DNA of 64,000 nt. Source: Clostridiales bacterium. GTDB taxonomy: Bacteria > Bacillota > Clostridia > Saccharofermentanales > DTU023. The notes beneath the pieces were generated by a model. It saw only the letters and a list, made by a program, of their open reading frames with translations. It was not told the DNA's origin and ran no database searches. A program made the position numbers and the translations under genes. Shown here piece by piece: positions 325-55,303 of the stretch. The stretch spans positions 356-64,355 of the forward strand of contig SFGY01000005.1 in NCBI GenBank assembly GCA_004556455.1. Reading direction: 5' to 3'. Numbering within the stretch: the first letter of the stretch is position 1; every line of letters begins with the position of its first letter.

Positions 325-3300
325 GTGCCTGAAGTCAGTACAGAAGGAGACGCACTTCAAACAGCTCTTCCAGAAACAGAGAATATTTACACCGAATCTC
401 CTCCGAATGAAATCAATTTGGTCGATCATGTGCAGGATGTCCCTGAACAGGCTGCTTCGATGCAGACCGATCTTCCAGAAGCTATAGCAGTTAAAGAGAT
501 TTTTAATTTTGATTTTCTGAGCCTCTCCCTCTCTAATATTGACGAAGCTTTCAGCGAAGCAATTACACCTCATGTTAAAGAACTTAAAGACGACGATCTT
601 CAGTCCGTTGAAGTGGCCATCAAGGCAGCGCTTCAGGATGAGCGGGAATTACTGGCTCCAGCGGGGAATGGAGATTCGGGTTTACAGGACTTGCAGGCTT
701 TATCCACGGACTCAGGCCTCAGAAATAACGAGGTAACGCCACAGGTAGAATTTACAGACGAATGGGCTAATCCTCTGCCTGAATCGTCTCCGGAAACGGT
801 GATGGCCGACAGTGCTTACAGGGTGTTGGCTTATGATTTTCAATTTCTTAATTCCGTTGGTGAATGTCTGGAACCGCAGACGGAAATAAACCTGTGCTTC
901 AGCTCTCCTCTTTTCTCACAGGCTGAAGTTCGTGCATTCCATATTTACGCGGATGAAAACGGCGCTTTAAAAGCAGTGGAAGTGGCAGCGGAACTGACAG
1001 CTGCTCAGACTTTGTCAGCACAAAGTGAAGCTACGAAGGAAGGTGAACTGGAATCACAGGCGGATAATGAAATACCACCAGCTTATACTACAGTCACAAT
1101 CCGAGCCAAAGATTTTTCAGTCTATGCTCTTTTGCTGATGCCACAGACATACGCCAGCGGAAAGCTGAATGAGGAGCCCCTGAGAGTTCCCTCAGTTTCC
1201 CAGATTTATCTAAACGGTCAGAACGGCAATGATGCCAACGACGGAAGTTCAGCTGATGCAGCGGTACGGAGTTTCGCCAGAGCAAAGGAACTGGCCATGA
1301 AGAACAGCGCCATTACCGACATTCTTGTCACCGGAACCACAGAGCTGGAAGGCGACATCAGCCTTCAGGGTACTATGGCAGCCATTAAACGGGAAAACAA
1401 CTTTGGCGGCTACCTTTTTAATGTCGCGATGGGGAAATCCGCCACTTTACATGACCTGACGATTGACGGCGAAAGCTCTGCCGATATACTGCGAAAAGCT
1501 CTTATCAAAGTTAACGGACATCTGAATATACAGGATGGAACGGTCTTACAGAATAATCGCTCAAAGGCAGAAAAAAACATGTGTGCCTGGGGCGGAGCTA
1601 TTGAGGCTTATGAGGCCACCGTCAGCATGTCTGGCGGCCTGATTCAGAATAACGAGGCGACCAACGGTGGCGGGATTTATCTCGGTAAGTCGAGTATGGA
1701 ACTGTCGGGAGGTCAGATCAGCAAGAATCATGCGAAACGTGTGAGTGATACTTTTGCTGACCAAATTTATGCTGCTGGTGGGGGAATTGCTCTGTATCAC
1801 GGCAGTACGCTCACTATTAGCGGGCAGCCACTTATTGAAAGTAACGTGTCCGATGAAGTTGGCGGAGGGATCAGTGCTGGAACGCGCCAGGCAAGTTATG
1901 GTCATGATTGCGTATTTATGAACGGTGGAATTATAAGAGGAAATTCTGCCGGTGCGTCAGGCGGTGGACTTTTTGTCCAGGCGGGTCTGAATAATGTGCA
2001 CAATGCCTCTGCCACTATCACTGCCGGCCAGATCATCAATAATGTGATGAATGGTAATGGCTATACCGAAAAGACCTTTGGTGGGGGCGGCATTTATGTC
2101 AATGGCGGACCGGAGACCTGGCTTTGGCAGGGAAATGAATATCATATGCGCAATGGGGAACTCCAGATCAGCAATGCCCTGATTGAGGATAATACGGCAG
2201 ATCAGTTTGGCGGCGGCGGTCTTGCGGCCTGCCCCGTCTCTAAAACATATGTCTATCTGACAGAGGGAGCGGCTATTATTGGAAATCACACGACGCCTTC
2301 TCCTCAAGGCGATGACATCTTCATTTACTCTAATCTGAACTTTGGCGCACATTCCGGACTTGCTGAATATGAGATTGCCACGCGCATGCTGGGAGGTACG
2401 CCTTACCTCTGGCATGATTATTATGACAATCCTGTTCCTGATGAGCGCCTGAAGGGAACCCTGGCCGATAAGGATATGTTGGTTCTGACTGCTACAGGCC
2501 AGATCAGTGCTGAGGCCAGACAACTGGCGACGGTTGTGATTTCGGGCAATCGCTCGGCTACCCGAGGTGGAGGTATTGGCTCCAATGGCACCGTCATTAT
2601 TGGTAAAAAAGAAGAGAAAAAAGATCTGCAAGTGATCAAGACCTGGGGACAGGGTCTCAATCCCCAACCCATTACTGTCGAATTGAGAGGTAAATCGAAA
2701 AACAGCGGGCTTGACTGGCTGATTGAAGCCGTCGAGCTAAACGAAAGCAATCAGTTCTCCCATGTTTTCCGTGATCTGGCGCAGAGCTTTTTTGATCCGA
2801 ACTCTGACGTTTCGCTTTACATCAGAGAACCCCAGTCAGATCAGTACAAGGTGACTGTGTCTCCATTTGTGGCTTTACCACAGGGAAAGACGCTCTCGTT
2901 TACACTGAGACGCCCACAGTTTTCTCAGTGGGATAACGCCTATGCTGCCTATTACAACTACTATCGGAAGCATCCTGAGGCAGGTATCTTTGATACGGGG
3001 AAGAGGGAGTTGAAAGATTTTACTGTTAAATACACTCTTCTGGATGAAAAAGGTCAAAGACTTGCTGAGAGCAGCATGTCTTATGAGGCTGAAGGTTATC
3101 ACTGGAACGGAAAGGCGGCTTTTGCAGGAATCCCTGTTAATGCAGAAGCTCTGGAAATTCAATATTATGACAATCAAGGTCAGTTAATCGAGCCGTGGCT
3201 GTTGCAGTACAATCTCTATCTGGAAAGGCATGACGATAAAACGATTCTGAAAGTGCCTAAGCTTAAGCCGACCAGGGACGACGCCATTACCGGGGATGAA

Positions 3301-3615
3301 ATTATCCTATCCGTGGAGGAACCAAAAGTCACGACGCCAAGTCAAGGCATTTATCAAATCACCATTGAAAATAAAAAACCGGAACCACCAAAACCGACAG
3401 AACCTACACATCCCACAGAACCTACTCATCCCACGGAACCCACACGACCAACGGAACCGTGTTGTACAACGGTGCGTTATTGTTGTGAGACCACAGTGCC
3501 CGTTACCAAAGCCAGCGTGCTCCCACGTACGGGTCAGCACGAGTTATGGGGGCTGCCCCTTCTTTTCCTGGCAGCGGCGGGTTTCCTCTTAATTCTTAAA
3601 AAACCGAAGATATAA
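325..3615 (+). CDS. LPXTG-anchored cell-wall surface protein with right-handed beta-helix / Pmp-like repeats (adhesin-like). The body ORF lacks its own signal peptide as sequenced.
   Basis: 1096-aa ORF. It carries recurrent glycine-turn motifs (GGAIEAY, NGGGIYLG, AAGGGIALY, VGGGISAG, SGGGLFVQ, FGGGGIYVNG, FGGGGLAACP, RGGGIGSNG). The C-terminus has a PTEPTH repeat stalk, LPRTG, a hydrophobic helix and a KKPK tail. Confidence 0.85.
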   Translation: MPEVSTEGDALQTALPETENIYTESPPNEINLVDHVQDVPEQAASMQTDLPEAIAVKEIFNFDFLSLSLSNIDEAFSEAITPHVKELKDDDLQSVEVAIKAALQDERELLAPAGNGDSGLQDLQALSTDSGLRNNEVTPQVEFTDEWANPLPESSPETVMADSAYRVLAYDFQFLNSVGECLEPQTEINLCFSSPLFSQAEVRAFHIYADENGALKAVEVAAELTAAQTLSAQSEATKEGELESQADNEIPPAYTTVTIRAKDFSVYALLLMPQTYASGKLNEEPLRVPSVSQIYLNGQNGNDANDGSSADAAVRSFARAKELAMKNSAITDILVTGTTELEGDISLQGTMAAIKRENNFGGYLFNVAMGKSATLHDLTIDGESSADILRKALIKVNGHLNIQDGTVLQNNRSKAEKNMCAWGGAIEAYEATVSMSGGLIQNNEATNGGGIYLGKSSMELSGGQISKNHAKRVSDTFADQIYAAGGGIALYHGSTLTISGQPLIESNVSDEVGGGISAGTRQASYGHDCVFMNGGIIRGNSAGASGGGLFVQAGLNNVHNASATITAGQIINNVMNGNGYTEKTFGGGGIYVNGGPETWLWQGNEYHMRNGELQISNALIEDNTADQFGGGGLAACPVSKTYVYLTEGAAIIGNHTTPSPQGDDIFIYSNLNFGAHSGLAEYEIATRMLGGTPYLWHDYYDNPVPDERLKGTLADKDMLVLTATGQISAEARQLATVVISGNRSATRGGGIGSNGTVIIGKKEEKKDLQVIKTWGQGLNPQPITVELRGKSKNSGLDWLIEAVELNESNQFSHVFRDLAQSFFDPNSDVSLYIREPQSDQYKVTVSPFVALPQGKTLSFTLRRPQFSQWDNAYAAYYNYYRKHPEAGIFDTGKRELKDFTVKYTLLDEKGQRLAESSMSYEAEGYHWNGKAAFAGIPVNAEALEIQYYDNQGQLIEPWLLQYNLYLERHDDKTILKVPKLKPTRDDAITGDEIILSVEEPKVTTPSQGIYQITIENKKPEPPKPTEPTHPTEPTHPTEPTRPTEPCCTTVRYCCETTVPVTKASVLPRTGQHELWGLPLLFLAAAGFLLILKKPKI
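3394..3459 (+). repeat. 18-bp coding tandem repeat (PTEPTH x ~3.7), Pro/Thr wall-spanning stalk
   Basis: ccgacagaacctacacat / cccacagaacctactcat / cccacggaacccacacga / ccaacggaaccg. Confidence 0.9.
3520..3534 (+). other. Sortase sorting motif LPRTG
   Basis: ctc cca cgt acg ggt, followed by QHELWGLPLLFLAAAGFLLILKKPKI*. Confidence 0.9.
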
Positions 3616-26119: not shown

Positions 26120-27547
26120 CTAATCTGGCCCGAAGACAGGCAGGCCCGGAGGATGGATTTCGTCCGGGGTTTGTTCGGCAAAGTCGAGGTCACGCTGAAG
26201 CACAGCCCAGCTTACGCTCTTTTCGCCGAAGCGCCCGCGCAGGTTGTAAATACAGTCCTCAATTTTCTCCAGGCGCTCTAGCTCGCGTGCATCTGAAAAA
26301 AAGTTCAGCTGCAGCGGCTGCTCCAGGGGAATGAGCTGGATGGCACGGATGCCCACGGCTCTAAGCGGTACCGGCATCTCGCTCATGCGGGTGAAGAGTT
26401 TATAGGCGCAGCGTGCAAGATACACGCTGCTGTGGCTGGGGTAGGGCAGAGGCGTCTGAAACTCTTCCTCGAAGAAGTTCTGATCGCGCAGGCTGATTTG
26501 CACACCGCCTGCGCGAAAGCCTCCGCTCCGTAAACGCAGGCCAACATTCTGGGCGAGGGCCAGGAAAACCGGCCAGAGGCTTTCTTTGCTGACGAGATCG
26601 TGGCGCAGGGTAAGACTGTGTCCGATACTCCTGACGGGCCCTCTCTCACCCAGTACGCGCACGCGCCCGTCATCCCAGCCGTTAGCCCAGCGCCAGAGGC
26701 GATAGCCGTTGATGCCGAGGCGGCGCTGCAGCAGTTCTGCCGGGGCGCGGGCGAGCTGGCCGATGGTGCTGATGCCCCAGAGGTTGAGCTTTCGTTTAGT
26801 CGCTGGGCCGACGCCCAGAAGGTCTTCGACTGGCAGGTTCCAGACCCTTTCGGGAATGTCTTCGCTGCGCAGGACGGTGACCGCATCTGGTTTTTTCATG
26901 TCGCTGCCGAGTTTGGCAAAGACCTTGTTGATACTGACGCCCACGGAAATGGTCAGACCCAGCTCCCGCTTGATACGCTGCCGCAGCAGCTCGGCGATGT
27001 CTTCGGGAGAGCCAAAAAGCTGGCGGCTGCCCCGTACATCCAGCCAGCATTCATCGAGGCCAAAGGGCTCGACCTGATTGCTGACCTCAGCGTAAATGGC
27101 CCGTGCCCGTTTGGAATAATGCACATAAGCTTCGTAGTGAGGAGGCACGATGTGGAGCTGGGGACATTTGCTCTGCGCCTGCCAGATGGTCTCGCCAGTT
27201 TTAACTCCCTGAATTTTCGCTTCCTGTGACTTGGCCAGTACAATCCCGTGGCGGTCTTCTACCGAGCCACAGACGGCCAAGGGCAGACCTTTGAAGGCTG
27301 GGTTCAGGACTTGTTCGACGGAAGCATAGTAGGCATTCATATCGCAGTGCAGAATACCCAGGCGGGGTTCCTGGCAACGGAGCTTGTCTGAGCCTCTGCC
27401 TGCTGCGCCTGCACCTGCGGTGTCTGAGCCGCTGCCCACTGTGCCTGAACCAGCGATACCCGGGCTTCTGCCTGCGCCTGCGATACCTGTGAGTGCAGTT
27501 GCTGAAGACCGTCTGCCGCTCGTTTTGGCAGGAATAAGTTCACCCAT
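26120..27547 (-). CDS. dinB: Y-family DNA polymerase (DinB/Pol IV-like) with a ~60-aa Gly/Ala/Ser-rich N-terminal extension
   Basis: ILHCDMNAYYASVEQ, LAVCGSVEDRHGIVLAKS, PFGLDECWLDV, ISVGVSINKVFAKLGSDMKKPD. ATG 27547 follows a strong GAGGAGG, and no alternative ATG lies closer to the catalytic core. Confidence 0.85.
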   Translation of the reverse strand: MGELIPAKTSGRRSSATALTGIAGAGRSPGIAGSGTVGSGSDTAGAGAAGRGSDKLRCQEPRLGILHCDMNAYYASVEQVLNPAFKGLPLAVCGSVEDRHGIVLAKSQEAKIQGVKTGETIWQAQSKCPQLHIVPPHYEAYVHYSKRARAIYAEVSNQVEPFGLDECWLDVRGSRQLFGSPEDIAELLRQRIKRELGLTISVGVSINKVFAKLGSDMKKPDAVTVLRSEDIPERVWNLPVEDLLGVGPATKRKLNLWGISTIGQLARAPAELLQRRLGINGYRLWRWANGWDDGRVRVLGERGPVRSIGHSLTLRHDLVSKESLWPVFLALAQNVGLRLRSGGFRAGGVQISLRDQNFFEEEFQTPLPYPSHSSVYLARCAYKLFTRMSEMPVPLRAVGIRAIQLIPLEQPLQLNFFSDARELERLEKIEDCIYNLRGRFGEKSVSWAVLQRDLDFAEQTPDEIHPPGLPVFGPD

Positions 27548-27560
27548 AGAGGCCTCCTCA

Positions 27561-27638
27561 AAATCAGCTCAGATAGCTCAGATGAAGTCTGTGAAATCAA
27601 CTCAAATGAAGTCTGTAAAATCAGTTCAGATAAAGTCT
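27561..27638. promoter_or_regulatory. Iterated operator-like motif in the dinB / XRE divergent region
   Basis: AAATCAGCTCAGATA (27561), AAATCAACTCAAATG (27594) and AAATCAGTTCAGATA (27618) are embedded in ~24-bp tandem units ctcagatgaagtctgtgaaatcaa / ctcaaatgaagtctgtaaaatcag. Confidence 0.45.
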
Positions 27639-27645
27639 TTTTTTC

Positions 27646-27675
27646 TTGACCCCACTGTGTTGGGCGGGATATACT
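27646..27675 (+). promoter_or_regulatory. Putative sigma-A promoter for the XRE-ImmA operon
   Basis: TTGACC (27646-27651), an 18-nt spacer, then TATACT (27670-27675). Confidence 0.4.
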
Positions 27676-27686
27676 GTGTTCGTAAA

Positions 27687-27725
27687 TGAAAGTACTTTCA
27701 CCTCTGTTGCACAGCATAGGTGCAA
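27687..27725. promoter_or_regulatory. Two palindromes downstream of the putative promoter (candidate repressor operators)
   Basis: A perfect 14-bp palindrome TGAAAGTACTTTCA lies at 27687-27700. The inverted repeat TTGCAC-N7-GTGCAA lies at 27707-27725. Confidence 0.4.
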
Positions 27726-27795
27726 ATAGTTTCATTGTCAACTGAAACTTGTTGCTTAATGCCTTGCTTAAGGCTTTGATGACGGGAGAAAAAAG

Positions 27796-28170
27796 GTGTT
27801 CGGTTCAAAAGTCAGAGATCTTCGTATTCGTAATAATCTCACACAGAAAGAGCTGGCCGCGCAACTTGGTGTTTCAACGCGCAGTCTGATCAACTATGAA
27901 ACAGGGCGCTGCTATCCCCGCCAGGCTTCGGTTGTGGCGCGTCTGGCAGAACTTCTCCATGTCTCCGCAGATTATCTGCTCTCAGACGGAGAGGAATCTG
28001 CTGCAAGCCATGAGACACAGGATGCACGTGCCGCCGACCGTCTTGTCAAAGAGCTTTCAGCCATGTTTGCAGGCGGACGCCTGAGCGAAGAAGACCGCGA
28101 TGCAGCCATGGAAGCGATACAACAGGCTTACTGGGACGGACGGCGTAATTCGCGCGAAAAAAAGAATTAG
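27796..28170 (+). CDS. XRE-family helix-turn-helix transcriptional regulator
   Basis: GTG start after GGGAG. VRDLRIRNNLTQKELAAQLGVSTRSLINYETGR is a canonical Cro/C1-type HTH. Confidence 0.85.
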   Translation: MFGSKVRDLRIRNNLTQKELAAQLGVSTRSLINYETGRCYPRQASVVARLAELLHVSADYLLSDGEESAASHETQDARAADRLVKELSAMFAGGRLSEEDRDAAMEAIQQAYWDGRRNSREKKN

Positions 28171-28191
28171 TCTGGGCGGGAAGTTCTTTTT

Positions 28192-28737
28192 ATGGCTCAG
28201 CGGAGAGCAATTCAAAGGGCGGAAGCAGCTGTCCGTAAGCTCCTTGCCTCCTGGGGAACTCGCGATGTGGAGCAACTTTGCAGGAATCTTGGCATCGCGC
28301 TTTATCCACGCTCAAATTTCCACCAGCTGAAAGGGATGTATGCCGTAGTGGAAGGGCGTCCCTGTATTTTTTATAAGGACAGCCTCAGCGAAGAGGATAA
28401 AAAACTGATTCTGGCCCATGAGCTGGGGCATGATCAGCTGCACCGTGAACTCGCGGGAAAGCAGATTCTCATCCGCGACCACATGTTTTTAGATATGAGC
28501 AGTCGTCCGGAGCTTGAGGCGAATCTCTTTGCTGCGGAGCTGTTGATTTCGGATGAAAGCTTTCTGGATTATGCAGAGCAGGGTTACAGCCTGGAGCAAG
28601 TTGCGGCGGCCTTGGCTTTTCCCGCGGATCTTCTGCGTCTGAAGGCGGAAATTCTCAGGGAGAAGGGCGAGCCTCTCCACCTCAGTGAGCCCTTGCCGGC
28701 GCACTTTTCTTTCGAAAGGGGAAAGGATAAAATTTAA
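28192..28737 (+). CDS. ImmA/IrrE-family (COG2856) zinc metallopeptidase
   Basis: It carries the HEXXH motif LILAHELGHDQLH and a downstream E(ANLFAAELL). It sits immediately after an XRE gene, the classic pairing. Confidence 0.8.
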   Translation: MAQRRAIQRAEAAVRKLLASWGTRDVEQLCRNLGIALYPRSNFHQLKGMYAVVEGRPCIFYKDSLSEEDKKLILAHELGHDQLHRELAGKQILIRDHMFLDMSSRPELEANLFAAELLISDESFLDYAEQGYSLEQVAAALAFPADLLRLKAEILREKGEPLHLSEPLPAHFSFERGKDKI

Positions 28738-28740
28738 GAC

Positions 28741-30138
28741 ATGAAAACCACGTCATGCCCGAAAAGATTTTTCAGCCTTCTCTTGCTTGGCTTTTTCCTG
28801 CTCACCCAGGGTTTTGCTTTATCTTCCTGCTCTGTTATTCAGAGGGCCGAAAGAGCTCCGCTTACGGTTGCCCGATATGGCGGCGGAGGACGCAAGAGCA
28901 GTCTGGATATCGTACAGAACTTTCCCTTCCGCGCCCCCGGATCCCCTGAAGAAAGGGCTCTGGCCGACTGGCTTAAAGCGGAACTTGAACGCCTGGGTCT
29001 GCAGGTTGAGATGCAGAGTTTTCAAGTGGGAGGTAAAAGCTCGCAGAATGTTTTGGCCACGATTAAAGGAAAGGGTTTAAAGCCTGCAGAGTCGCAGGAG
29101 GACGAGCAAATGGCCAAAAGTGCCGAAATGCAGCATCCTGCTGATCTGGAAGGTCGGCGCATTATTCTCGGCGCACACTATGACACTCTTTACAGCCGTG
29201 CGCAGGCGGAAGAAAAAGATCAGGAAGCTCAGGCGGCGGAAGTCGATGAAGAGGGAAATCCTGTGGCGAGTGACCCTAACCTGCCTAAATTGGCTCAAAG
29301 TGATGGCATCGACGATAATGCCGCAGCCCTCGGCGTCCTTTTGCAGACCGCCAGGCTTCTGGCAGCAAGGCCAGCTGCCTATGATGTGACCATCGCCTTT
29401 TTTGGCGCGGGACATGCTGATTTTGCGGGGGCTCAATTTGCAGCCGATCAGCTGAGTCCTGCTGAGCGTGGAAAAATTGATGCGCTCGTCGTTTTAGATT
29501 CTATTTATGCAGGGGACAAGGTTTATGCTCATGCAGGTCAAAATTCTGTGGAGAGCGGCGAAAAGAAAAAATATGCTTTGCGACGCAAACTCTATGAGTG
29601 TACCGACGTCTACTACGATAATCTTCTGCTGACCCGCAACGGTTTTGCCCTTTATACCAATCAGGCCGGCTGCGAAAAGGATTTGGCGGGCGTGGGAAAC
29701 TGCATTTACCGCGAGTGGACAGAAAAGAGAAGCGATCACAGTCCCTTCGATCAGCTGGGGATTCCCGTCGTCTTTTTCGACTCCGGCGACTATGATATTG
29801 AGCAATGTGACAGCCCGGTTAAAGAGAGCAACGATCCCTTTTTTGCCTCTGTGAATGGCATGATTGCCGGCAACGGTTTTGACAGCAGCGACCGCCTGCT
29901 CAATTATTTTGTCTCTGAAAAGCAGCAGAAGAATCGTGACCGCTTTGGCCGTTCAGAAGAAACAAGTCCGCTCAGCGAAGAGCGTCAAAGTGTGGCTGCG
30001 GAAAGCAGCCAGGATGATTATCTGAGCGAGGCGGATCGCCTGGAAATTCGCATCAATAATCTCGCTTTTATTCTCGAACAGCTTTGCCGCAATGTTCCGC
30101 CGGGAACCGTGGCCAAAGGAGCAAAGGAGCTTTCATAA
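28741..30138 (+). CDS. M28-family metallopeptidase lipoprotein
   Basis: The lipobox is FALSSC. Metal-ligand regions are ILGAHYDT, GIDDNAAALGVLL and FFGAGHADFAG, plus HSPFDQLGIPVVFF. Confidence 0.75.
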   Translation: MKTTSCPKRFFSLLLLGFFLLTQGFALSSCSVIQRAERAPLTVARYGGGGRKSSLDIVQNFPFRAPGSPEERALADWLKAELERLGLQVEMQSFQVGGKSSQNVLATIKGKGLKPAESQEDEQMAKSAEMQHPADLEGRRIILGAHYDTLYSRAQAEEKDQEAQAAEVDEEGNPVASDPNLPKLAQSDGIDDNAAALGVLLQTARLLAARPAAYDVTIAFFGAGHADFAGAQFAADQLSPAERGKIDALVVLDSIYAGDKVYAHAGQNSVESGEKKKYALRRKLYECTDVYYDNLLLTRNGFALYTNQAGCEKDLAGVGNCIYREWTEKRSDHSPFDQLGIPVVFFDSGDYDIEQCDSPVKESNDPFFASVNGMIAGNGFDSSDRLLNYFVSEKQQKNRDRFGRSEETSPLSEERQSVAAESSQDDYLSEADRLEIRINNLAFILEQLCRNVPPGTVAKGAKELS

Positions 30139-30590
30139 TGTGGATATTCTGGTTGGTCCTTATTGTACTTTTTCTTATTGCTGAAGCAGTGACCGTCAAT
30201 ATGACGACGATCTGGTTTGCGGCAGGTGCGCTGGCCTCTCTGATTGCCAATCTGCTGAACGTGGAGCTCTGGTTGCAGCTGCTGATCTTTTTCCTCGTTT
30301 CGGTTGTCTGTCTGCTGCTGTTTATCCTCGTTTTCAAACCGCGGATGGCCCCTCTGATCAAAAGGCCGGTATCCACTAATGCCGATCGCATTATCGGGGA
30401 AGAAGCTCGTGTCATTAAAGATATACTGCCGCTCAAAAAGGCCGGGCAGATCGAGGTCCTGGGTCAGATATGGTCGGCCATTGCGGAGGATGGGCAGAGC
30501 AGCATCCCGGAAGGTGCAACAGTCAGAGTGTTGGCGATCCATGGAGTTAAAGCTGTGGTCCGGCCCACAGACCCTGTGTCAGTGTCTTAA
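30138..30590 (+). CDS. NfeD-family membrane protein (short form)
   Basis: ATG overlaps the M28 stop (TAATG). There are three N-terminal TM helices, then an OB-fold-like tail GEEARVIKDILPLKKAGQIEVLGQIWSAIAEDGQSSIPEGATVRVLAIHGVKAVV. Confidence 0.8.
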   Translation: MWIFWLVLIVLFLIAEAVTVNMTTIWFAAGALASLIANLLNVELWLQLLIFFLVSVVCLLLFILVFKPRMAPLIKRPVSTNADRIIGEEARVIKDILPLKKAGQIEVLGQIWSAIAEDGQSSIPEGATVRVLAIHGVKAVVRPTDPVSVS

Positions 30591-30740: not shown

Positions 30741-31826
30741 ATGTTTCTTAGCATTCAAAACGGTTTTTCTGAGGACCGTATCGGTTCTCTCATCGCTCTT
30801 ATTTTTCTCGCCCTCGTGCTTCTGATTATCCTCATTCGCAATATTCGCGTCGTACCCCAGGCTCATAATTTCATCATTGAACGGCTGGGAACCTACAAAG
30901 CCACCTGGGACACCGGCCTTCATATGAAAGTGCCGTTTATTGATAAAGTGATCAAAAATATCTCGCTGAAAGAAAAGGTGGCGGATTTCGAGCCGCAGGC
31001 TGTGATCACCAAGGATAACGTCACCATGCAGATCGACACTGTGGTGTTTTACCAGATTGTCGACCCTAAGCTCTACACCTACGGCATCGAGAATCCTATT
31101 TCGGCCATCGAAAATCTTTCGGCAACGACTCTGCGTAACATCATCGGTGACCTGGAACTCGACGAAACGCTGACCTCCCGCGATGTCATTAACACGAGAA
31201 TGCGGGAAACGCTGGATATTGCCACAGATCCCTGGGGCATTAAAGTCAATCGCGTCGAACTGAAAAACATCATTCCGCCGAAAGAAATTCAGACCGCCAT
31301 GGAACGGCAGATGAAAGCGGAGCGTGAAAAACGCGAAAATATCCTGCGCGCTGAGGGCCAGAAGGAAGCGGCCATCCGTGTGGCCGAAGGTGAAAAAGAG
31401 GCGGCTATTCTTCGTGCAGAAGCGAAAAAGGAACAGGCCATTCGCGTGGCCGAAGGTCAGGCTCAGGCCATTCTCAAGGTGCAGGAAGCCACGGCCAAGG
31501 GTCTGGCCATGATTAAGGATGTGCAGGCCGATAAGAGCCTTATCGCTCTGAAAGGCCTTGAAGCCCTGACCAAGGTTGCTGATGGCCGCGCGACCAAGAT
31601 TATTATCCCTTCAAATATGCAAGGCATCGCTTCTGCCGCTGTCTCCATCAAGGAAATGATCACAGATCCTCAATTTTCTCCCGATCAGGTTGCAGAAAAA
31701 ACGGAGGCGGTGTCCCCCGTAGAAGAAAAATGGAGACCCGAAGCAGACGAGCGCAAACTCACGCAGTCGGCTGATGACCCCCTGTCAGGGCATCACTTTG
31801 AGCCTTCTGGCTTCTCCAAGATCTAA
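30741..31826 (+). CDS. SPFH/Band-7 (stomatin/QmcA-like) membrane protein
   Basis: It has an N-terminal TM, then RVVPQAHNFIIERLGTYKATWDTGLH, ITKDNVTMQIDTVVFYQIVDP and an EAERE-rich coiled coil. It is the partner of the upstream NfeD. Confidence 0.9.
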   Translation: MFLSIQNGFSEDRIGSLIALIFLALVLLIILIRNIRVVPQAHNFIIERLGTYKATWDTGLHMKVPFIDKVIKNISLKEKVADFEPQAVITKDNVTMQIDTVVFYQIVDPKLYTYGIENPISAIENLSATTLRNIIGDLELDETLTSRDVINTRMRETLDIATDPWGIKVNRVELKNIIPPKEIQTAMERQMKAEREKRENILRAEGQKEAAIRVAEGEKEAAILRAEAKKEQAIRVAEGQAQAILKVQEATAKGLAMIKDVQADKSLIALKGLEALTKVADGRATKIIIPSNMQGIASAAVSIKEMITDPQFSPDQVAEKTEAVSPVEEKWRPEADERKLTQSADDPLSGHHFEPSGFSKI

Positions 31827-31830
31827 ATCC

Positions 31831-31858
31831 CAGGGCTGCGCCATGTCGCAGCCCTTTT
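31831..31858 (+). terminator. Rho-independent terminator after the SPFH gene
   Basis: AGGGCTGCG (31831-31839), loop ccatgt, CGCAGCCCT (31846-31854), then TTTTG. Confidence 0.65.
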
Positions 31859-31873
31859 GCTGAGAGGAAAACT

Positions 31874-33112
31874 ATGCTTCGTTCGATTCATATTGAGCAG
31901 TTCGGTATTCTCAAAGATGTGACGATCGGACCGACGTCCGAAGAAATTCAGGCGGCTTTACAGAGGAAAGAGAAAATCTCAGGCGGCCTGAGCGCTCTCA
32001 GTTGTTTTATTGGCCGGAACGGCACGGGCAAAAGTGCTTTCCTGGGCAGCATCAGTTTTATCCGCGATGCCTTGCTCTATGGTCTTCCCCATGCGTCCAG
32101 CAGCGGCCAGCGTGGAGGTTTTGCCCGCCTGCGCACACGCCAGCTCCCGCTCTATGAGGGTGAAATCTGGAGCCTGGAAAGCAGAATCCCGCGCACTTTC
32201 CCGGAGAATAGCAGAGCTGCGGCTGAAGGATCTTCTGAGAAGAAAAATATGGTCTTTGATTTCATCTATGAACGGCGACCGGAACAGTTTCTTCACTACC
32301 ATATCAGCATGAATGGAGATAAACACAGCCGCCCCTTTATTTATGAAGAAACCGTACGCCTGCTCAGCTCTGAGGGAGAAAAAGAGTTGCTCTCGGTTCG
32401 TGAGGGAAAAGGCCATGTGAGTTCAGAGCGCTTTGGCAATGACGAAGTCCAGCTGCTGGACGAAAAGGTTCCGGCCCTCTCGCTCTTTGGACGCATGCTC
32501 CAGTACAAAGAGCTCTGCTGGCTTTATCTACAGCTCACCAGCAGCTTTGTCTGCCGCCCTGCGGAGATGCCAGATAAGGGGCTTTTAGCGAAAGAAAAGG
32601 GAGGGCATAAGCATCTCAATGAGCGCATGGATAATCTGCGTAATGTCCTGAATTACCGGGAAAAGGAAGACCCTAAGGCTTACGAACAGCTGCTCTCGCG
32701 CATTCTGGATCAGGTTCCTGATTACAAGAAGGTCGGTGATGCGTTTCTGGATCAGGGTATTTCCTCAGGAAATCTGAGACTTTTTGCTCTGCTGCTTCTG
32801 CTCGAAGATCCGCGTACTCTGATCTGTATCGATGAGCCTGACAACGGTCTCTATCACGATATGATCGAGGCCCTGATGCAGGCCACGCGCCACTACATTC
32901 TGGAGCAGAAGGACGCTCAGATTTTCCTTACGACTCACAACAGTTCGGTGCTCGAGGCTCTGAGCCCGGAAGAAGTATGGGCCTTCGAGCGCAGGAACGA
33001 TGGACGGATTCACGTGCGCTCCCTGGCGCAGGATGAGATTGTCCGTCAGATGTATAAAGAAGGCATCAATATGGGGATGCTCTGGTACGGCGGCCATCTG
33101 GGTGTCAACTGA
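31874..33112 (+). CDS. ABC/SMC-like AAA ATPase (AAA_21 / COG4637-like)
   Basis: Walker A is GRNGTGKS, the signature-like segment is ISSGNLRLFALLLLL, Walker B is LICIDEPDNGLYHD and the H-loop is FLTTHN. The C-terminal GMLWYGGHLG tail is typical of this ATPase group. Confidence 0.8.
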   Translation: MLRSIHIEQFGILKDVTIGPTSEEIQAALQRKEKISGGLSALSCFIGRNGTGKSAFLGSISFIRDALLYGLPHASSSGQRGGFARLRTRQLPLYEGEIWSLESRIPRTFPENSRAAAEGSSEKKNMVFDFIYERRPEQFLHYHISMNGDKHSRPFIYEETVRLLSSEGEKELLSVREGKGHVSSERFGNDEVQLLDEKVPALSLFGRMLQYKELCWLYLQLTSSFVCRPAEMPDKGLLAKEKGGHKHLNERMDNLRNVLNYREKEDPKAYEQLLSRILDQVPDYKKVGDAFLDQGISSGNLRLFALLLLLEDPRTLICIDEPDNGLYHDMIEALMQATRHYILEQKDAQIFLTTHNSSVLEALSPEEVWAFERRNDGRIHVRSLAQDEIVRQMYKEGINMGMLWYGGHLGVN

Positions 33113-33113
33113 G

Positions 33114-33941
33114 ATGCGCATTGAAGTCCTCTGTGAAGATAAATCCTCGGTCAGGGTGCTGAAAAAAATACTGGGGGACCTTCTTTTCTTTGGTCGCGAG
33201 CCCCTTTTTCCCGCAGCCGTCCAAGCTGCGGTTGAATCAACTCCAGGAGGAAAGGGCCTGGCTTTATGGCCCGGCGTGTCAGAGGAGAGCGAGCATCTGC
33301 TTTCACAAAATGGGGTTGTTCTCGACATTCATCCCCATCGCGGCAAGGGTTATATTCCTGCGAACCTTTTTGAAAAACCGGAGTATAGCCGCAGCGGCCT
33401 GCTCAATCTGCTCCCGGCCAAGCTCAGGGCTTATGCGCATTTGAATCGGGAAGAGGGACTGATCGTCTGCGTTGTTCTTGATTCAGACGATGATGATGTG
33501 AACAGGCTCTACCAGAAGATCGAGGCGCTCATTCGCCACTGCGCGCCGGGACGTTTCTTTGTGATCGGCATATCCGTCGAAGAGATGGAGGCCTGGCTGC
33601 TGGGAGATCCTCTTGCCCTCTGTCAGGCCTTTCCGGAAGCCGACCTGGCTCTCCTGAAATCCTACACTCAGGACGGCATCTGCGGGACCTGGGAGTTATT
33701 GGCACAAATCATTGAAGGTCAGGAGAAGGGTCGGGAACTTGCCCGTATCGGCTACCCTGCTGTGGGAATATATAAAGCGAAATGGGCCGAGGCTATTGCC
33801 CCATGGCTGGATCCTGAGCGCAATCAATCGCCGAGCTTGCAGAACTTCATCCATCGCTTTCGCACTATGGTTCGCCTTGCCGCCGGGAACGACAGGTCAG
33901 GACGCGCTGCAAAACAGACTTCGAAGCAGGACGACGCATGA
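33114..33941 (+). CDS. DUF4276-like / TOPRIM-like protein (putative nuclease partner of the upstream ATPase)
   Basis: ATG lies 1 nt after the ATPase stop. Motifs are MRIEVLCEDKSS (conserved Glu after the first strand), IVCVVLDSDDDD (DxD) and SVEEMEAWLLGD. The stop overlaps the hemW start (ATGA). Confidence 0.6.
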   Translation: MRIEVLCEDKSSVRVLKKILGDLLFFGREPLFPAAVQAAVESTPGGKGLALWPGVSEESEHLLSQNGVVLDIHPHRGKGYIPANLFEKPEYSRSGLLNLLPAKLRAYAHLNREEGLIVCVVLDSDDDDVNRLYQKIEALIRHCAPGRFFVIGISVEEMEAWLLGDPLALCQAFPEADLALLKSYTQDGICGTWELLAQIIEGQEKGRELARIGYPAVGIYKAKWAEAIAPWLDPERNQSPSLQNFIHRFRTMVRLAAGNDRSGRAAKQTSKQDDA

Positions 33942-35101
33942 TTCCAACGGCCGCTTATATCCATGTGCCCTTCTGCGCTTCCCGCTGCAGTTACTGTGAT
34001 TTTTACAGCCTTCGTCCGGGGGCAGATAGCTTTCAGCGTTATACCCGTGCCGTCTGCCTGGAGATTCGCGCCGAAGCGGCTGCCGCTGCGCAGAAAAATG
34101 CTGCGCCAGCGCCTCTCACGAGCTGCTATTTTGGTGGGGGCACGCCAAGTTTTCTGCCACTCTCTGCCCTCGAAAAAATCATGGACACGCTGCGCCGTAG
34201 TTTTGCTTTTGACGCGGAAGCAGAAATCACCCTTGAAGCCAATCCCGCCAAAAACCTTCCTGCCCGGCTCCCCGCCCTGCGGCGCATGGGGTTTAACCGC
34301 CTGAGCCTCGGTCTGCAATCCGCAGATAATCGCCTTTTAAAGCGTCTGGGCCGCATCCATACCCGCGAAGATTTCGCTGAATCCCTTCGTGCGGCCCGTG
34401 AAGCAGGTTTTGACAATATTTCTTCGGACCTGATCTTCGCTCTGCCCGGCCAGCGGCTGGAATCCTTCACTGAAGAGGTCGAATGGCTGCTGCAGTTTCC
34501 GCTCGAACACCTGAGTTTCTATTCCCTGCAGCTTGAAGAAGGTACCCCCCTGGCCGCCGAAATGGCCCGCGATCCCTCTGAACTGCCTGGCGAAGATGAA
34601 GAGCGCGCCATGTATCACAGCCTGCGCCGCCGCCTGAACCAAAGCGGGCTTATCCCCTACGAAATCTCCAATGCCGCCCGTCCCGGTTTTGCCTCCCGAC
34701 ACAATCTCGTTTACTGGAATGCTTTGCCTTACTACGCCTTCGGACCCGCTGCAGCCTCTTATACGGAGGGCGTGCGCCGTCACAATCCGCAGGACTTTGA
34801 GCTCTGGGAGCAAAAAGTGCTGGCCGCCGGGGAAACTCAGGCACATGCCGCTGCCATCGAAGACGAAAAAATCGACAGAGCCTCCGAGCAGGCAGAATAT
34901 GTCATGCTGCGTTTTCGCCTGACGGAAGGCCTCTCTTTTAAGGCCTATCGTGAACGCTTTGGCGAGGATCCACAGCGGCGCTTTGCAGGCGCATTTTCCC
35001 GGCTTCAGGAGCGCGGCCTCCTGCAAAAGACGCCAGCAGGGCTCGCCCTTTCGGAGCTGGGTCTTGATTTGGCCAACCAGGTGATGCTGGAGTTTGTCTA
35101 G
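33938..35101 (+). CDS. hemW: Radical SAM heme chaperone HemW (HemN-like, oxygen-independent coproporphyrinogen oxidase family)
   Basis: YIHVPFCASRCSYCDF (CxxxCxxC), GGGTPSFL and the HemN_C tail are present. It holds the conserved position upstream of hrcA-grpE-dnaK-dnaJ. Confidence 0.9.
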   Translation: MIPTAAYIHVPFCASRCSYCDFYSLRPGADSFQRYTRAVCLEIRAEAAAAAQKNAAPAPLTSCYFGGGTPSFLPLSALEKIMDTLRRSFAFDAEAEITLEANPAKNLPARLPALRRMGFNRLSLGLQSADNRLLKRLGRIHTREDFAESLRAAREAGFDNISSDLIFALPGQRLESFTEEVEWLLQFPLEHLSFYSLQLEEGTPLAAEMARDPSELPGEDEERAMYHSLRRRLNQSGLIPYEISNAARPGFASRHNLVYWNALPYYAFGPAAASYTEGVRRHNPQDFELWEQKVLAAGETQAHAAAIEDEKIDRASEQAEYVMLRFRLTEGLSFKAYRERFGEDPQRRFAGAFSRLQERGLLQKTPAGLALSELGLDLANQVMLEFV

Positions 35102-35445: not shown

Positions 35446-35474
35446 TTGACAGTCAACAGAGTGAATGATAAAGT
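35446..35474 (+). promoter_or_regulatory. Sigma-A promoter of the hrcA operon
   Basis: TTGACA (35446-35451), a 17-nt spacer, then TAAAGT (35469-35474), immediately followed by CIRCE. Confidence 0.6.
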
Positions 35475-35478
35475 GAAC

Positions 35479-35505
35479 TTGGCACTCGAGATCATCGAGT
35501 GCTAA
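35479..35505 (+). promoter_or_regulatory. CIRCE operator (HrcA binding site)
   Basis: TTGGCACTC-gagatcatc-GAGTGCTAA against the consensus TTAGCACTC-N9-GAGTGCTAA, with one mismatch. Confidence 0.9.
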
Positions 35506-53143: not shown

Positions 53144-55303
53144 GTGAAAAATCATCCGCGAAATTCTGGACTCAGGCTGCTCGGCAGGTGTCTTCCGCTC
53201 TTTTTACTTGCGGTCTTAATTGTCGAGTCTTTCTTTCTCTTTCGGGAGCTGCCCAAGGCGGAACCTGTTTTTCCCTGTCCCGGGGTGATTACGGCAGATC
53301 CTTCGTGCAACATGAGGCGTGACCCCAATACCTCGCGCGAAGTGCTGCGTGAGCTGCGCCGCGATGTCAAAGTCACCGTCCTCTCTCAGGTCGAAGGTGA
53401 GGCTGTTGGTGAAAATAATATCTGGTATGAAATCCAATATGGCAATATTTACGGCTATGTAAGTCAGATTTTCGTACGTCTGGAAGCGGAAACACCGACC
53501 CTGCCTCTGCCTCCCGCTATGAACATACCCGGTGAAGCGGAATTCCGCGCCTCCCTGGAAGCTGAAGGTTTCCCTGCGGATTATCAAGCCAAGTTGATGG
53601 CTTTGCATAGCCAGCATCCAGCCTGGAGTTTTAAGGCTCTGCATACCAACTATGCCTTTGAAAATGCCGTACGAGGAGAGTATCGGCCAGGTGTGAACAT
53701 GGTCACATCTACGGCCCCTCCGGAGTATAAATCCATGGCGGAGACAGATTTCAACTATGCGAGCAATAGCTGGGTGGAATATGAGCCAGGCTGGGTGGGC
53801 GCTTCAGAAGCCCTGATTGCCTACCAGATGGATCCCCGCAATTTTCTGGATGAAACGCAAATTTTCCAGTTCGAAAATCAACAGTATAATGCCGCGATGG
53901 ACTATCGTCATGGTCTGGCGGCCATTCTCGCTGAAAGTTTTATGAATCCCACGGTGCCTGTCAGTTATGTGGATACTTCAGCTTCGCAGCAAACGCTTGG
54001 ACTGTCCTATGTCGATTTGCTGGTTCAGGCCGGCGAAAGCTCCGGAGTGAGCCCCTACCATCTGGCTTCCAGAATCTTACAGGAGGTTTCTCCAAAGGGT
54101 TCGGACAGTGTCTCCGGAACCTATCAGGATATGATAGGCTATTACAATTTTTATAATATCGGCGCCTATGGCGGCAGTGATCCGGTTTATGCCGGACTGA
54201 TGACAGCCCGAGATGGGATCTCGGGTTATTCTGCAGCTAAGAATGAGAGCTTCCTCTTTCCCTGGACAGATCCGGCCCGAGCGATCAGCGGCGGGGCTGT
54301 TTTTATCGGACAGGATTACATCAACGTCGATCAGCAGACCCTTTATCTGCAGAAATTTAACTTGCTTTCACGCTTTACCCGGCCTTTTACCCATCAGTAC
54401 ATGGGCAATGTTCTGGCTCCTGAGTATGAGGCCATCGATGTCTACAAGGCCTATGTGCGCATGGGCGCCCTGGATGAGGCCAAGGAATTCCTGATTCCGG
54501 TCTTTGCCTCTATGCCTGCCCAGACGCCTTCGCCCACCGGAGGCGGGAACCCGAACAACTGGCTGCGAGACCTCTGGATCAATGGAAAGCCCATCCAGGA
54601 TTTTACCCCTGAAAAATTTGAATACCGTGTGGATATTTCCTCGGCAACCCGGGGCATATACGTCCAGGCCCTTCCCTGGAACCAGGAAAGCAGTGTTTAC
54701 GGTACCGGGGTTTACATACTGAAGCCCGGTGTCAACGAGATTCTTCTTCAGGTAACGGCGCCGGCGGGCGCCGTTCGACAATATCGGCTCTGTGTCGTTC
54801 AGGGTTCAGAGACGGCTGGTGTGGATCCTAAGGCCCTGCCCCAGCTGAAAAGTTCACAGTACAAGCTGAATGCTCTGGGTTATCTTTACGGCGCTGATCC
54901 GGCTCAGGGTCTGAATCAGGCTGAGCTGATTCGCAACAGTTATCCTGTGCCGGAAGGCTATCAGATTGATGTTGTGGATGCCAGTGGCGTCAGTGCGAGC
55001 GGGCCGGTTGGCACCGGAGCTGCCGTGAGGCTGATGGCGAATGGCCGTGTGCTCAATGAATTTCCCATCGTGATTTTAGGCGATGGCAACGGGGACGGAA
55101 ATATCGATGTTCTTGATATCAACATGCTTTTTTCGCGCATCTCTCAACTGAAGTCGCAGGGAGGGACCGCGGCCGATCTTGCCCTGGATGTCAATCAGGA
55201 TGGTTCCGCGGATGTCATGGATCTTAATCTGATCTTTCAGCAGATCAATGGTGGAGCAAAAATCAGCCAGACGCTGGTCGCAAAGAACGTGACCCAACGC
55301 TGA
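53144..55303 (+). CDS. Secreted/membrane-tethered SH3b + GH73-like N-acetylglucosaminidase-like protein with a C-terminal dockerin
   Basis: The N-terminal TM/signal is CLPLFLLAVLIVESFF. The SH3b-like segment is NMRRDPNTSREVLRELRRDVKVTVLSQVEGE..IWYEIQYGNIYGYV. The central region (SPYHLASRILQE, YNFYNIGAYGG, TLYLQKFN) resembles glucosaminidase domains. The dockerin lies at the C-terminus. Confidence 0.65.
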   Translation: MKNHPRNSGLRLLGRCLPLFLLAVLIVESFFLFRELPKAEPVFPCPGVITADPSCNMRRDPNTSREVLRELRRDVKVTVLSQVEGEAVGENNIWYEIQYGNIYGYVSQIFVRLEAETPTLPLPPAMNIPGEAEFRASLEAEGFPADYQAKLMALHSQHPAWSFKALHTNYAFENAVRGEYRPGVNMVTSTAPPEYKSMAETDFNYASNSWVEYEPGWVGASEALIAYQMDPRNFLDETQIFQFENQQYNAAMDYRHGLAAILAESFMNPTVPVSYVDTSASQQTLGLSYVDLLVQAGESSGVSPYHLASRILQEVSPKGSDSVSGTYQDMIGYYNFYNIGAYGGSDPVYAGLMTARDGISGYSAAKNESFLFPWTDPARAISGGAVFIGQDYINVDQQTLYLQKFNLLSRFTRPFTHQYMGNVLAPEYEAIDVYKAYVRMGALDEAKEFLIPVFASMPAQTPSPTGGGNPNNWLRDLWINGKPIQDFTPEKFEYRVDISSATRGIYVQALPWNQESSVYGTGVYILKPGVNEILLQVTAPAGAVRQYRLCVVQGSETAGVDPKALPQLKSSQYKLNALGYLYGADPAQGLNQAELIRNSYPVPEGYQIDVVDASGVSASGPVGTGAAVRLMANGRVLNEFPIVILGDGNGDGNIDVLDINMLFSRISQLKSQGGTAADLALDVNQDGSADVMDLNLIFQQINGGAKISQTLVAKNVTQR
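55079..55252 (+). other. Dockerin module (two EF-hand-like Ca-binding repeats)
   Basis: GDGNGDGNIDVLDINMLFSRI ... LDVNQDGSADVMDLNLIFQQING. Confidence 0.75.

Follow-up and report, generated by a model that had tools for sequence, protein, structure and literature searches.

A two-gene cassette in front of hemW

How did a gene pair of conflict type come to stand in a housekeeping operon, and what does it do there? The question is raised by a stretch of 64,000 nucleotides (nt) from a Clostridiales bacterium (assembly GCA_004556455.1, contig SFGY01000005.1), called the window below and taken at its full length. Here two adjacent genes, one for an ABC ATPase of 412 amino acids (aa; gene 1) and one for a DUF4276-family protein of 275 aa (gene 2), immediately precede hemW (Table 1). 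Comparison of relatives shows that the ancestor of Saccharofermentanales and allied 'Oscillospiraceae' metagenome-assembled genomes (MAGs) gained the pair once, immediately upstream of hemW, and that it has since been inherited as part of the hemW transcription unit, under purifying selection. The novelty is evolutionary. A cassette of conflict type has been frozen within a housekeeping operon, relatives either have it or cleanly lack it, and the catalytic residues of the ATPase are lost by degrees. As to function, the pair is best read as a putative nuclease module gated by ATP and fixed in the chromosome, whether it is still immune or has been domesticated.

The pair is inherited together with hemW

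A pattern scan with one genome per species detected relatives of gene 2 in at least 584 genomes, of which the best 80 were examined. The order ATPase-DUF4276-hemW on one strand is observed in 80/80 of these best species-level loci, and this synteny reaches down to 27%, 35% and 32% identity to the window ATPase, DUF4276 and HemW proteins, respectively. The triad is usually followed by hrcA-grpE-dnaK-dnaJ; part of the clade has lost the adjacency of hrcA-dnaK. The carriers are Clostridia. They include Saccharofermentans, Mageeibacillus and Candidatus Scatonaster (order Saccharofermentanales) as well as many MAGs labelled 'Oscillospiraceae', 'Clostridiales' and 'Clostridiaceae', and metagenomic contigs show the same gene arrangement as the species genomes. 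Among the carriers are cultured organisms: Saccharofermentans acetigenes, Mageeibacillus indolicus, Ruminococcaceae bacterium YAD3003 and KHP2, and Oscillospiraceae HV4-5-C5C.

Upstream of the ATPase gene three contexts are found across sub-lineages: M28-NfeD-SPFH, M28 alone, or rsmD-coaD with a 163-aa coiled-coil protein. NfeD and SPFH precede the pair in one sub-lineage only. The ATPase-DUF4276-hemW block is thus the constant unit and its upstream neighbours are variable. Among 86 loci, most junctions into hemW are overlaps of -1/-4/-8. In the Saccharofermentans-like sub-lineage (L034 5723-6711 and ~30 other loci) the pair is preceded by coaD (phosphopantetheine adenylyltransferase), the conserved coiled-coil protein being encoded between the two, and an rsmD-like methyltransferase gene lies further upstream in some loci.

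Pairwise distances of both proteins follow those of hrcA+dnaK+dnaJ (r=0.94 for the ATPase and r=0.89 for DUF4276, Mantel p<=0.001), and their mean divergence resembles that of hemW. Measured against the closest relative, the ratio of non-synonymous to synonymous substitution rates (dN/dS) is 0.078 for the ATPase, 0.18 for DUF4276 and 0.096 for hemW. The pair is under purifying selection, is vertically inherited and is not a mobile island. A mobile defence island was rejected on the 80/80 synteny and the co-divergence, and decaying pseudogenes were rejected on dN/dS and on the invariant residues described below.

Relatives without the pair

Relatives were also sampled by way of hemW, a choice that introduces no bias for or against the pair, and this gave five hemW homologues (43-51% identity). 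Two are carriers with full synteny (L104, L105). The other three (L102 4680-7170, L103 4733-7200, L106 4648-7215) are non-carriers, in which the M28 peptidase gene runs into hemW, the two overlapping by up to 4 bases or lying up to 3 bases apart. No trace of the pair was found at this M28-hemW junction in any of the three, and NfeD-SPFH is also absent there. In a neighbour-joining tree of hemW+hrcA+dnaK+dnaJ, the two non-carriers that have the needed markers nest among carriers: 99.5% of 200 bootstraps join L106 to the carrier L026, the clade around them has 100% support, and the two non-carriers never group together. The simplest reading is that the pair was lost independently at least twice. 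Since non-carriers are nested among carriers, the pair is dispensable. A preliminary description of this DNA, made from the sequence alone, had argued that universal synteny with hemW across the order would imply a core function. Synteny in all 80 best loci and co-divergence go most of the way in that direction, but the association is not universal, as 3/5 of the relatives sampled through hemW do not have the pair.

The same description placed the pair in a slot usually held by lepA and asked whether relatives have lepA-hemW and no pair. A search of the 64-kb window found no lepA, its two ~593-aa open reading frames (ORFs) being an alpha-amylase and RF3, and the relatives devoid of the pair have the M28 gene in front of hemW instead. 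Replacement of lepA by the pair was rejected on this M28-hemW state of the empty site.

Translational coupling of the pair to hemW, also proposed there, is present in the form of an ATGA shared by the gene 2 stop and the hemW start. However, it is not specific to the pair, the M28 end abutting or overlapping hemW in non-carriers. Because hemW is joined to whatever gene precedes it, the ATGA overlap is no evidence of a functional link; in this group, expression of hemW seems in every case to come from the gene ahead of it. Furthermore, in one carrier lineage (L014 8693-9961, L015 8501-9769; GCA_034177165.1, metagenome contig) hemW is encoded on the opposite strand, with an intact pair on one side and hrcA on the other, a rearrangement that corresponds to a local inversion of hemW alone. 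The pair remains intact where hemW is inverted, which argues that it is kept for its own sake. Coupling as a sign of a functional link was downgraded on these two observations.

The ATPase

Gene 1 carries all the motifs that had been read from it: Walker A (G47RNGTGKS54), a signature-like segment (S297SGNLRLFALLLLL), Walker B (L316ICIDEPDNG), the H-loop (T353THN) and the C-terminal GMLWYGGHLG. The protein matches Pfam AAA_21 (4.4e-21, 76.7 bits for a cut-off of 27) and also AAA_15, and it matches the PADLOC model HEC-01A with 2.5e-66. The AAA_21, HEC-01A and HEC-01B matches of the two genes were judged far beyond chance. The AlphaFold2 (AF2) model has a predicted local distance difference test score (pLDDT) of 85.6. 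Its best Foldseek match is the Thermus scotoductus OLD nuclease (6p74, 5.4e-10), and further matches with a Foldseek probability of 1.0 include the retron-Eco8 effector, the Smc head (4i99), PtuA of Septu, GajA of Gabija (8x5i, 8sm3) and the RecN head. At the sequence level, phmmer against PDB sequences gave a marginal ABC transporter match only. With Walker A, ICID320E321, H355 and S297SG all in place and the fold in addition, the gene 1 product is an ABC ATPase of the SMC-head/OLD-like type, and the original call of this family holds.

The DUF4276 protein

The start of gene 2 was set 1 nt past the gene 1 stop rather than at the in-frame ATG at 33000 because homologues conserve the N-terminus M-x-IEVL-x-ED. 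The segments quoted in the preliminary description (MRIEVLCEDKSS, IVCVVLDSDDDD and EEMEAWLLGD) are present, and they contain three acidic clusters, E8/D9, D123-S-D125 and E156-E157-x-E159-x-W161. The protein matches PADLOC HEC-01B (1.8e-56) over residues 67-251. Its match with Pfam DUF4276 (PF14103) is restricted to residues 100-248 and, with 27.9 bits, falls below the gathering score of 30.2; nevertheless all 42/42 aligned homologues match this family (best 2.1e-12). DUF4276 membership, which the preliminary description had proposed, can be regarded on these profile matches as secure at the level of the clade, the window sequence alone being sub-threshold. A search of NCBIfam retrieved no family matching gene 2.

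Conservation was assessed on 79 non-redundant hemW-linked DUF4276 proteins and 78 partner ATPases. Residues E8, D9, D123, D125, E156, E157 and E159 are 100% conserved in the 79 orthologues, as are 20 residues altogether. The AF2 model (pLDDT 85.8) shows a strand-helix-strand-helix-strand-helix-strand succession followed by a helical C-terminal domain. Strand 2-8 ends in E8/D9, strand 116-123 (strand 3) ends in D123-S-D125, and E156/E157/E159 follow strand 4. The model therefore has the topology of TOPRIM domains, with a Glu ending strand 1 and a DxD ending strand 3, and published analyses place DUF4276 in TOPRIM (bioRxiv 10.1101/2024.01.29.577857; bioRxiv 10.1101/2023.03.30.534895). On the basis of this topology, the motifs and these analyses, a TOPRIM fold is consistent with the data rather than independently confirmed.

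An insertion described earlier as ~60 aa does exist between the Glu and DxD elements but is shorter, about 34-43 aa (about residues 26/36-69), and lies between helix 1 and strand 2. It is modelled with low confidence, evolves faster than the rest of the protein and is confined to the window species and its 85-86% identical relative.

Distant relatives occur in conflict contexts

The gene 2 family is small (1,804 cluster representatives of 1.84 billion, E<=0.001). Distant relatives, among which few or no hemW-linked loci were returned, occur in typical conflict contexts. Whether such pairs lie in defence islands elsewhere had been left as a question, and one locus (L096) answers it positively: the pair stands between a ResIII helicase, a Bro-N protein, an N6/N4 methylase and a UvrD helicase. 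Another (L099), on a Gram-negative contig, is a stand-alone pair 4 kb from a PIN-domain gene. Four IMG/VR viral contigs carry related pairs. In one of them (L108 1802-10397, IMGVR_UViG_2818991314_000002), a P2-like prophage, the pair lies between replication gene A and the portal/terminase/scaffold genes, which is the slot of old and tin in phage P2. None of these relatives (L096, L099, viral) is accompanied by hemW. The HEC-01A/B models score 3e-193 and 2e-98 on the island-embedded pair and ~1e-60 on the hemW-linked orthologues, and PADLOC would therefore label the whole clade HEC-01.

Gene organization and transcription unit

The gene coordinates, the 1-nt gap between genes 1 and 2 and the overlap with hemW given in the preliminary description were all recovered from the ORFs (Table 1). 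The immediate neighbours of the pair are genes for an M28 peptidase, an NfeD protein and an SPFH protein upstream, and hemW and hrcA-dnaK downstream. The reported absence of mobile-element genes was borne out over ~10 kb around the pair. The gene families of this neighbourhood include no methyltransferase, no mad6-8 equivalents and no other mad genes, and no helicase that could be a GajB-like partner adjoins the pair. The hemW product belongs to the NCBIfam equivalog TIGR00539 (2.4e-75, above cut-off), carries Radical_SAM and HemN_C domains (Pfam) and scores as an ordinary HemW. A closely packed string of genes on one strand begins with the XRE and M78 genes and has hemW as its last member.

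Table 1 Features of the region around the gene pair, in window coordinates
Feature	Position	Strand	Basis or remark
Promoter-like site	27741-27713	-	
Promoter-like site	27646-27675	+	predicted; ahead of XRE gene
XRE-type helix-turn-helix (HTH) regulator	27796-28170	+	Pfam families of identical proteins in L001
M78/ImmA-like metallopeptidase	28192-28737	+	Pfam families of identical proteins in L001
Peptidase_M28, lipoprotein-like signal	28741-30138	+	precedes hemW directly in pair-less relatives
NfeD	30138-30590	+	Pfam match, gene calls
SPFH/Band_7	30741-31826	+	Pfam match, gene calls
Hairpin, 9-bp G+C-rich stem	31832-31855		followed by 3-4 U to 31858
Shine-Dalgarno-like GAGAGGA, 5 nt before ATPase ATG	31862-31868	+	read from sequence
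Gene 1, ABC ATPase, HEC-01A match	31874-33112	+	Pfam, PADLOC, NCBIfam, AF2/Foldseek
Gene 1, Walker A	32012-32035		
Gene 1, Walker B + D-loop (LICIDEPD)	32819-32842		
Gene 1, H-loop His355	32936-32938		
Gene 2, DUF4276-family putative metal-dependent nuclease, HEC-01B match	33114-33941	+	Pfam, PADLOC, AF2, alignment
Gene 2, E8/D9	33135-33140		
Gene 2, insertion	33219-33320		
Gene 2, D123-S-D125	33480-33488		
Gene 2, E156-E157-x-E159-x-W161	33579-33596		
ATGA, gene 2 stop overlapping hemW start	33938-33941		
hemW, radical-SAM heme chaperone family, last gene of unit	33938-35101	+	TIGR00539, Pfam
Promoter-like TTGACA-17-TAAAGT	35446-35474	+	hrcA-grpE-dnaK-dnaJ operon
CIRCE operator	35479-35505		1 mismatch

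The terminator that had been placed at 31831-31858, between the SPFH and ATPase genes, corresponds to a real plus-strand hairpin with a conserved stem: the 85%-identical relative and a variant strain both leave the stem unchanged, and differences are confined to the loop. However, the hairpin is followed by few U, and a terminator scan, whose criteria it does not satisfy, did not list it. It is probably a weak terminator, an attenuator or an RNA-stability element. A search of Rfam gave no known RNA family in any part of the window; neither the hairpin nor the 400-nt spacer between hemW and hrcA matched one.

No promoter of its own is visible for hemW in the promoter/terminator scan. Downstream, a promoter-like site and a CIRCE (controlling inverted repeat of chaperone expression) operator (TTGGCACTC-N9-GAGTGCTAA) belong to the separate hrcA-grpE-dnaK-dnaJ operon, an arrangement of classical HrcA control. 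As this operon has a promoter-like site and an operator of its own, hemW is the last gene of the upstream unit. The hrcA start is probably the ATG at 35564, after a GAAAGGAG, rather than 35509. Within the region, the best sigma-70-like match (CTGACA-16-TATGAT, 10/12) is located at 32838-32865, over the Walker B codons; it sits inside the ATPase gene, ~250 nt before gene 2, and may be due to chance or be an internal promoter for gene 2 and hemW.

At the other end of the string, a minus-strand gene for a Y-family DNA polymerase (DinB-like, Pfam IMS) diverges from the XRE and M78 genes (26120-28737), with back-to-back promoter-like sites (Table 1). This layout resembles the damage-responsive switches of the ImmR/ImmA or DdrO/IrrE type, and such a switch could control the whole gene string down to hemW.

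Elsewhere in the window, a 1096-aa ORF (325-3615) has no Pfam match at E<=1e-5. A 719-aa protein (53144-55303) combines an SH3_3 domain with a C-terminal type I dockerin, the latter hinting that the organism may build cellulosome-like complexes, and several glycoside hydrolase and sugar-transport genes are found at 10-25 kb.

Conflict module or domesticated cassette

The best explanation is that the two proteins would form a nuclease of the HEC-01 / Mad3-Mad4 kind that is gated by nucleotide. If it works as PARIS, Gabija and OLD do, the ATPase, as an ATP-bound oligomer, would hold the nuclease inactive until a trigger, possibly a foreign protein or nucleic acid or a drop in nucleotide, releases or activates it. 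The freed nuclease would then cut DNA or tRNA with Mg2+ bound by E8/D123/D125, and this cutting would stop growth of the infected or stressed cell. The weakest step of the explanation is the assignment of the pair to the resident, non-mobile conflict modules of abortive-infection type. We make it tentatively and put its chances slightly below even. We lean towards it because every characterised relative is immune, because relatives occupy a defence slot in a prophage and because the pair can be lost.

Several results weigh against this assignment or against the nuclease on which it builds. Foldseek comparison of the gene 2 model with the PDB gave a best E of 0.06 with a template modelling (TM) score <0.27 and retrieved no TOPRIM protein, and comparison with BFVD gave no match. 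A profile of the 42 homologues found nothing meaningful among PDB sequences, and hhalign of this profile with phage P2 Old reached a probability of 0.8%; the latter alignment paired VLCED with Old LLVEG and HRGKG with VDGKG, which is suggestive only. Of the TOPRIM-type character attributed to gene 2 from its sequence, the acidic constellation stands and is 100% conserved, but the fold was not recovered by Foldseek, profile or hhalign comparisons. HEC-01 itself, cloned in E. coli, gave no protection against the phages used (bioRxiv 10.1101/2024.01.29.577857). The family is near-absent from plasmids (3/72,556) and phages (1/50,697). The window pair has no neighbouring defence or mobile genes, and its order-level vertical inheritance, with no signs of transfer and with hemW-like substitution rates, is atypical of defence systems.

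The ATPase motifs belong to the same set of objections. The Walker A Lys, Q349 and the H-loop His355 are invariant in the 78 hemW-linked ATPases. The Glu that follows the Walker B acidic residue is kept in only 13/78 of them; this catalytic residue is replaced in 64/78, by T in 41 and otherwise by S, A, N, Q or D (ET, ES, EA, EN, DQ and others; window residues 320-321). The S-x-G of the signature (window residues 297-300) is also mostly lost in the hemW-linked ATPases L016-L095. ATPases from island, stand-alone or viral contexts are canonical in 6/6 cases (SDGTLK...FAY and ICIEEPENGLYH), and the window ATPase and its closest relatives retain DE and SSG. The site of the partner nuclease is invariant despite this decay. 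From these residues we infer that most ATPases of the clade would bind ATP but have little hydrolytic activity; in the window copy, ATPase activity may persist. The loss of motifs suggests that the function changed after fixation of the pair.

The main rival is a domesticated housekeeping module, captured next to hemW and exapted for example for stress-linked RNA processing or DNA repair, which would have ceased to serve immunity. The 80/80 synteny, the co-divergence with hrcA/dnaK/dnaJ, purifying selection at the level of hemW and the absence of mobile and defence neighbours are all in its favour. So is the combination of a lost catalytic Glu and signature in most orthologues with an invariant nuclease site, unlike the situation in defence-context relatives, and so is the position of the pair in a string that contains stress-related genes and adjoins the CIRCE-controlled chaperone operon. 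Housekeeping analogies exist, an ABC ATPase being paired with a Toprim protein in RecF-RecR and RNase M5 being a Toprim enzyme. However, the pair was lost at least twice with no replacement at the site, and hence is not essential, and the family is otherwise known only from conflict contexts. Exaptation of the pair seems to us unlikely, although well worth considering, and we are similarly doubtful of its wider form, according to which the whole HEC-01-type clade, captured once before hemW, would now be domesticated in a cellular, non-immune role. If domestication were true, it would be the first housekeeping role for the family, and surveys of the PADLOC type would miscount these loci as defence.

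The block in front of the chaperone genes could also be read as a three-component system in which the ATPase, the DUF4276 nuclease and HemW act together, their adjacency and overlaps reflecting a shared function. The triad is indeed the sole constant unit, since the upstream genes vary and hrcA-dnaK is not adjacent in part of the clade, and -1/-4 overlaps into hemW predominate. Yet hemW is normally placed in pair-less relatives, where it abuts or overlaps the M28 end, it is inverted in one carrier lineage, relatives of the pair occur elsewhere without it, and its product scores as an ordinary HemW, so that we consider joint action improbable. Much the same low probability is given to a selfish or entrenched pair, either a toxin-antitoxin-like addiction module or one that is kept because expression of hemW runs through it. 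In Pfam, AAA_21 is given as a putative toxin (AbiEii) belonging to a type IV toxin-antitoxin system. For hemW no separate promoter can be seen, and its start overlaps the gene 2 stop; the clean M28-hemW junctions of non-carriers show that the site tolerates both states. Pure entrenchment, however, would not hold 20 nuclease residues 100% invariant or dN/dS at 0.08-0.18; the pair is intact where hemW is inverted and cannot depend on it, and the clean losses argue against strong addiction.

Whether a conflict module or a domesticated one, the pair provides a natural experiment: across order-level divergence the cassette has stayed fixed in one housekeeping operon, it is cleanly present or absent at one site, and the ATPase motifs grade from a canonical form in the window to a degenerate one in most relatives. 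If still immune, it would represent an unusual core, non-mobile immunity wired into the hemW unit beside the CIRCE-controlled chaperone operon; if domesticated, it would show the recruitment of conflict modules to cellular functions and would be a warning against defence calls from hidden Markov model (HMM) matches alone. DUF4276/HEC-01 pairs are counted as candidate defence in metagenomic surveys, and none has demonstrated activity on its own. The comparison points, either way, to residues and cultured carriers worth testing.

Comparison with known systems

Systems in which an ABC ATPase is combined with a TOPRIM protein include OLD, Gabija, PARIS, AbiL and MADS3-4, which are grouped together in the PARIS paper. 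In OLD and GajA the combination is the same, and the fold of the window ATPase is closest to OLD 6p74 and also resembles GajA. However, both domains are fused there in one polypeptide, whereas the window pair consists of two ORFs, and Gabija needs the helicase GajB, which is absent beside the window pair. PARIS has, like the window pair, a separate ABC ATPase, the sensor AriA, and a TOPRIM effector, AriB, and the window ATPase matches the PADLOC AriA models (4.9e-22). In this system a phage trigger is sensed and AriB is released and cleaves tRNA-Lys. The effector belongs to DUF4435 rather than DUF4276, and PARIS typically resides on phages or satellites. No AriB model is found among the PADLOC matches of gene 2, for which Pfam gives DUF4276 only. 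AbiL (AbiLi/AbiLii) and RloA/RloB also associate an AAA_21-type ATPase with a small TOPRIM-like partner, and the window ATPase matches AbiLi with 1.2e-20. Here the partner family is RloB, to which two gene 2 homologues show weak matches (0.04), and not DUF4276, and the contexts are plasmids or restriction-modification (RM) islands.

A closer likeness in composition is seen with MADS, the eight-gene methylation-associated defence system of Pseudomonas aeruginosa, which includes Mad3-Mad4 (bioRxiv 10.1101/2023.03.30.534895), an ABC ATPase and a DUF4276 TOPRIM protein as in the window pair. Deletion of mad3 or mad4 reduces MADS defence, and mad5 can be deleted only alongside mad2 or mad3 (bioRxiv 10.1101/2023.03.30.534895), which suggests that loss of mad5 alone is lethal and that the ATPase is involved in self-toxicity. 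The window ATPase, however, scores 73.3 bits with the MAD3 equivalog of NCBIfam, for which 420 is required, and no mad genes are nearby.

The preliminary view of an uncharacterised conflict system is correct in its call of an ABC ATPase with DUF4276 and in that no function has been assigned by experiment, but the type was already catalogued as HEC-01/Mad3-4. It is known as the candidate phage-defence family HEC-01 (Hma-embedded candidate 01), which is functionally unproven: an ABC ATPase together with a TOPRIM protein embedded in Hma (helicase-methylase-ATPase) systems (Payne et al., bioRxiv 10.1101/2024.01.29.577857). A conserved acidic metal site is reported for HEC-01B (bioRxiv 10.1101/2024.01.29.577857). 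The cassette has the same two-gene design, an AAA_21/AAA_15 ATPase followed by a DUF4276/TOPRIM-like protein, and the window genes are adjacent, co-oriented and 1 nt apart. The window pair is neither inside nor next to a defence system (Hma, RM) or a mobile element, whereas the distant relative L096 is embedded in such a context. The type cassette lies inside Hma systems, while the window pair, in a housekeeping operon ahead of hemW, is vertically inherited and has an insertion of 34-43 aa.

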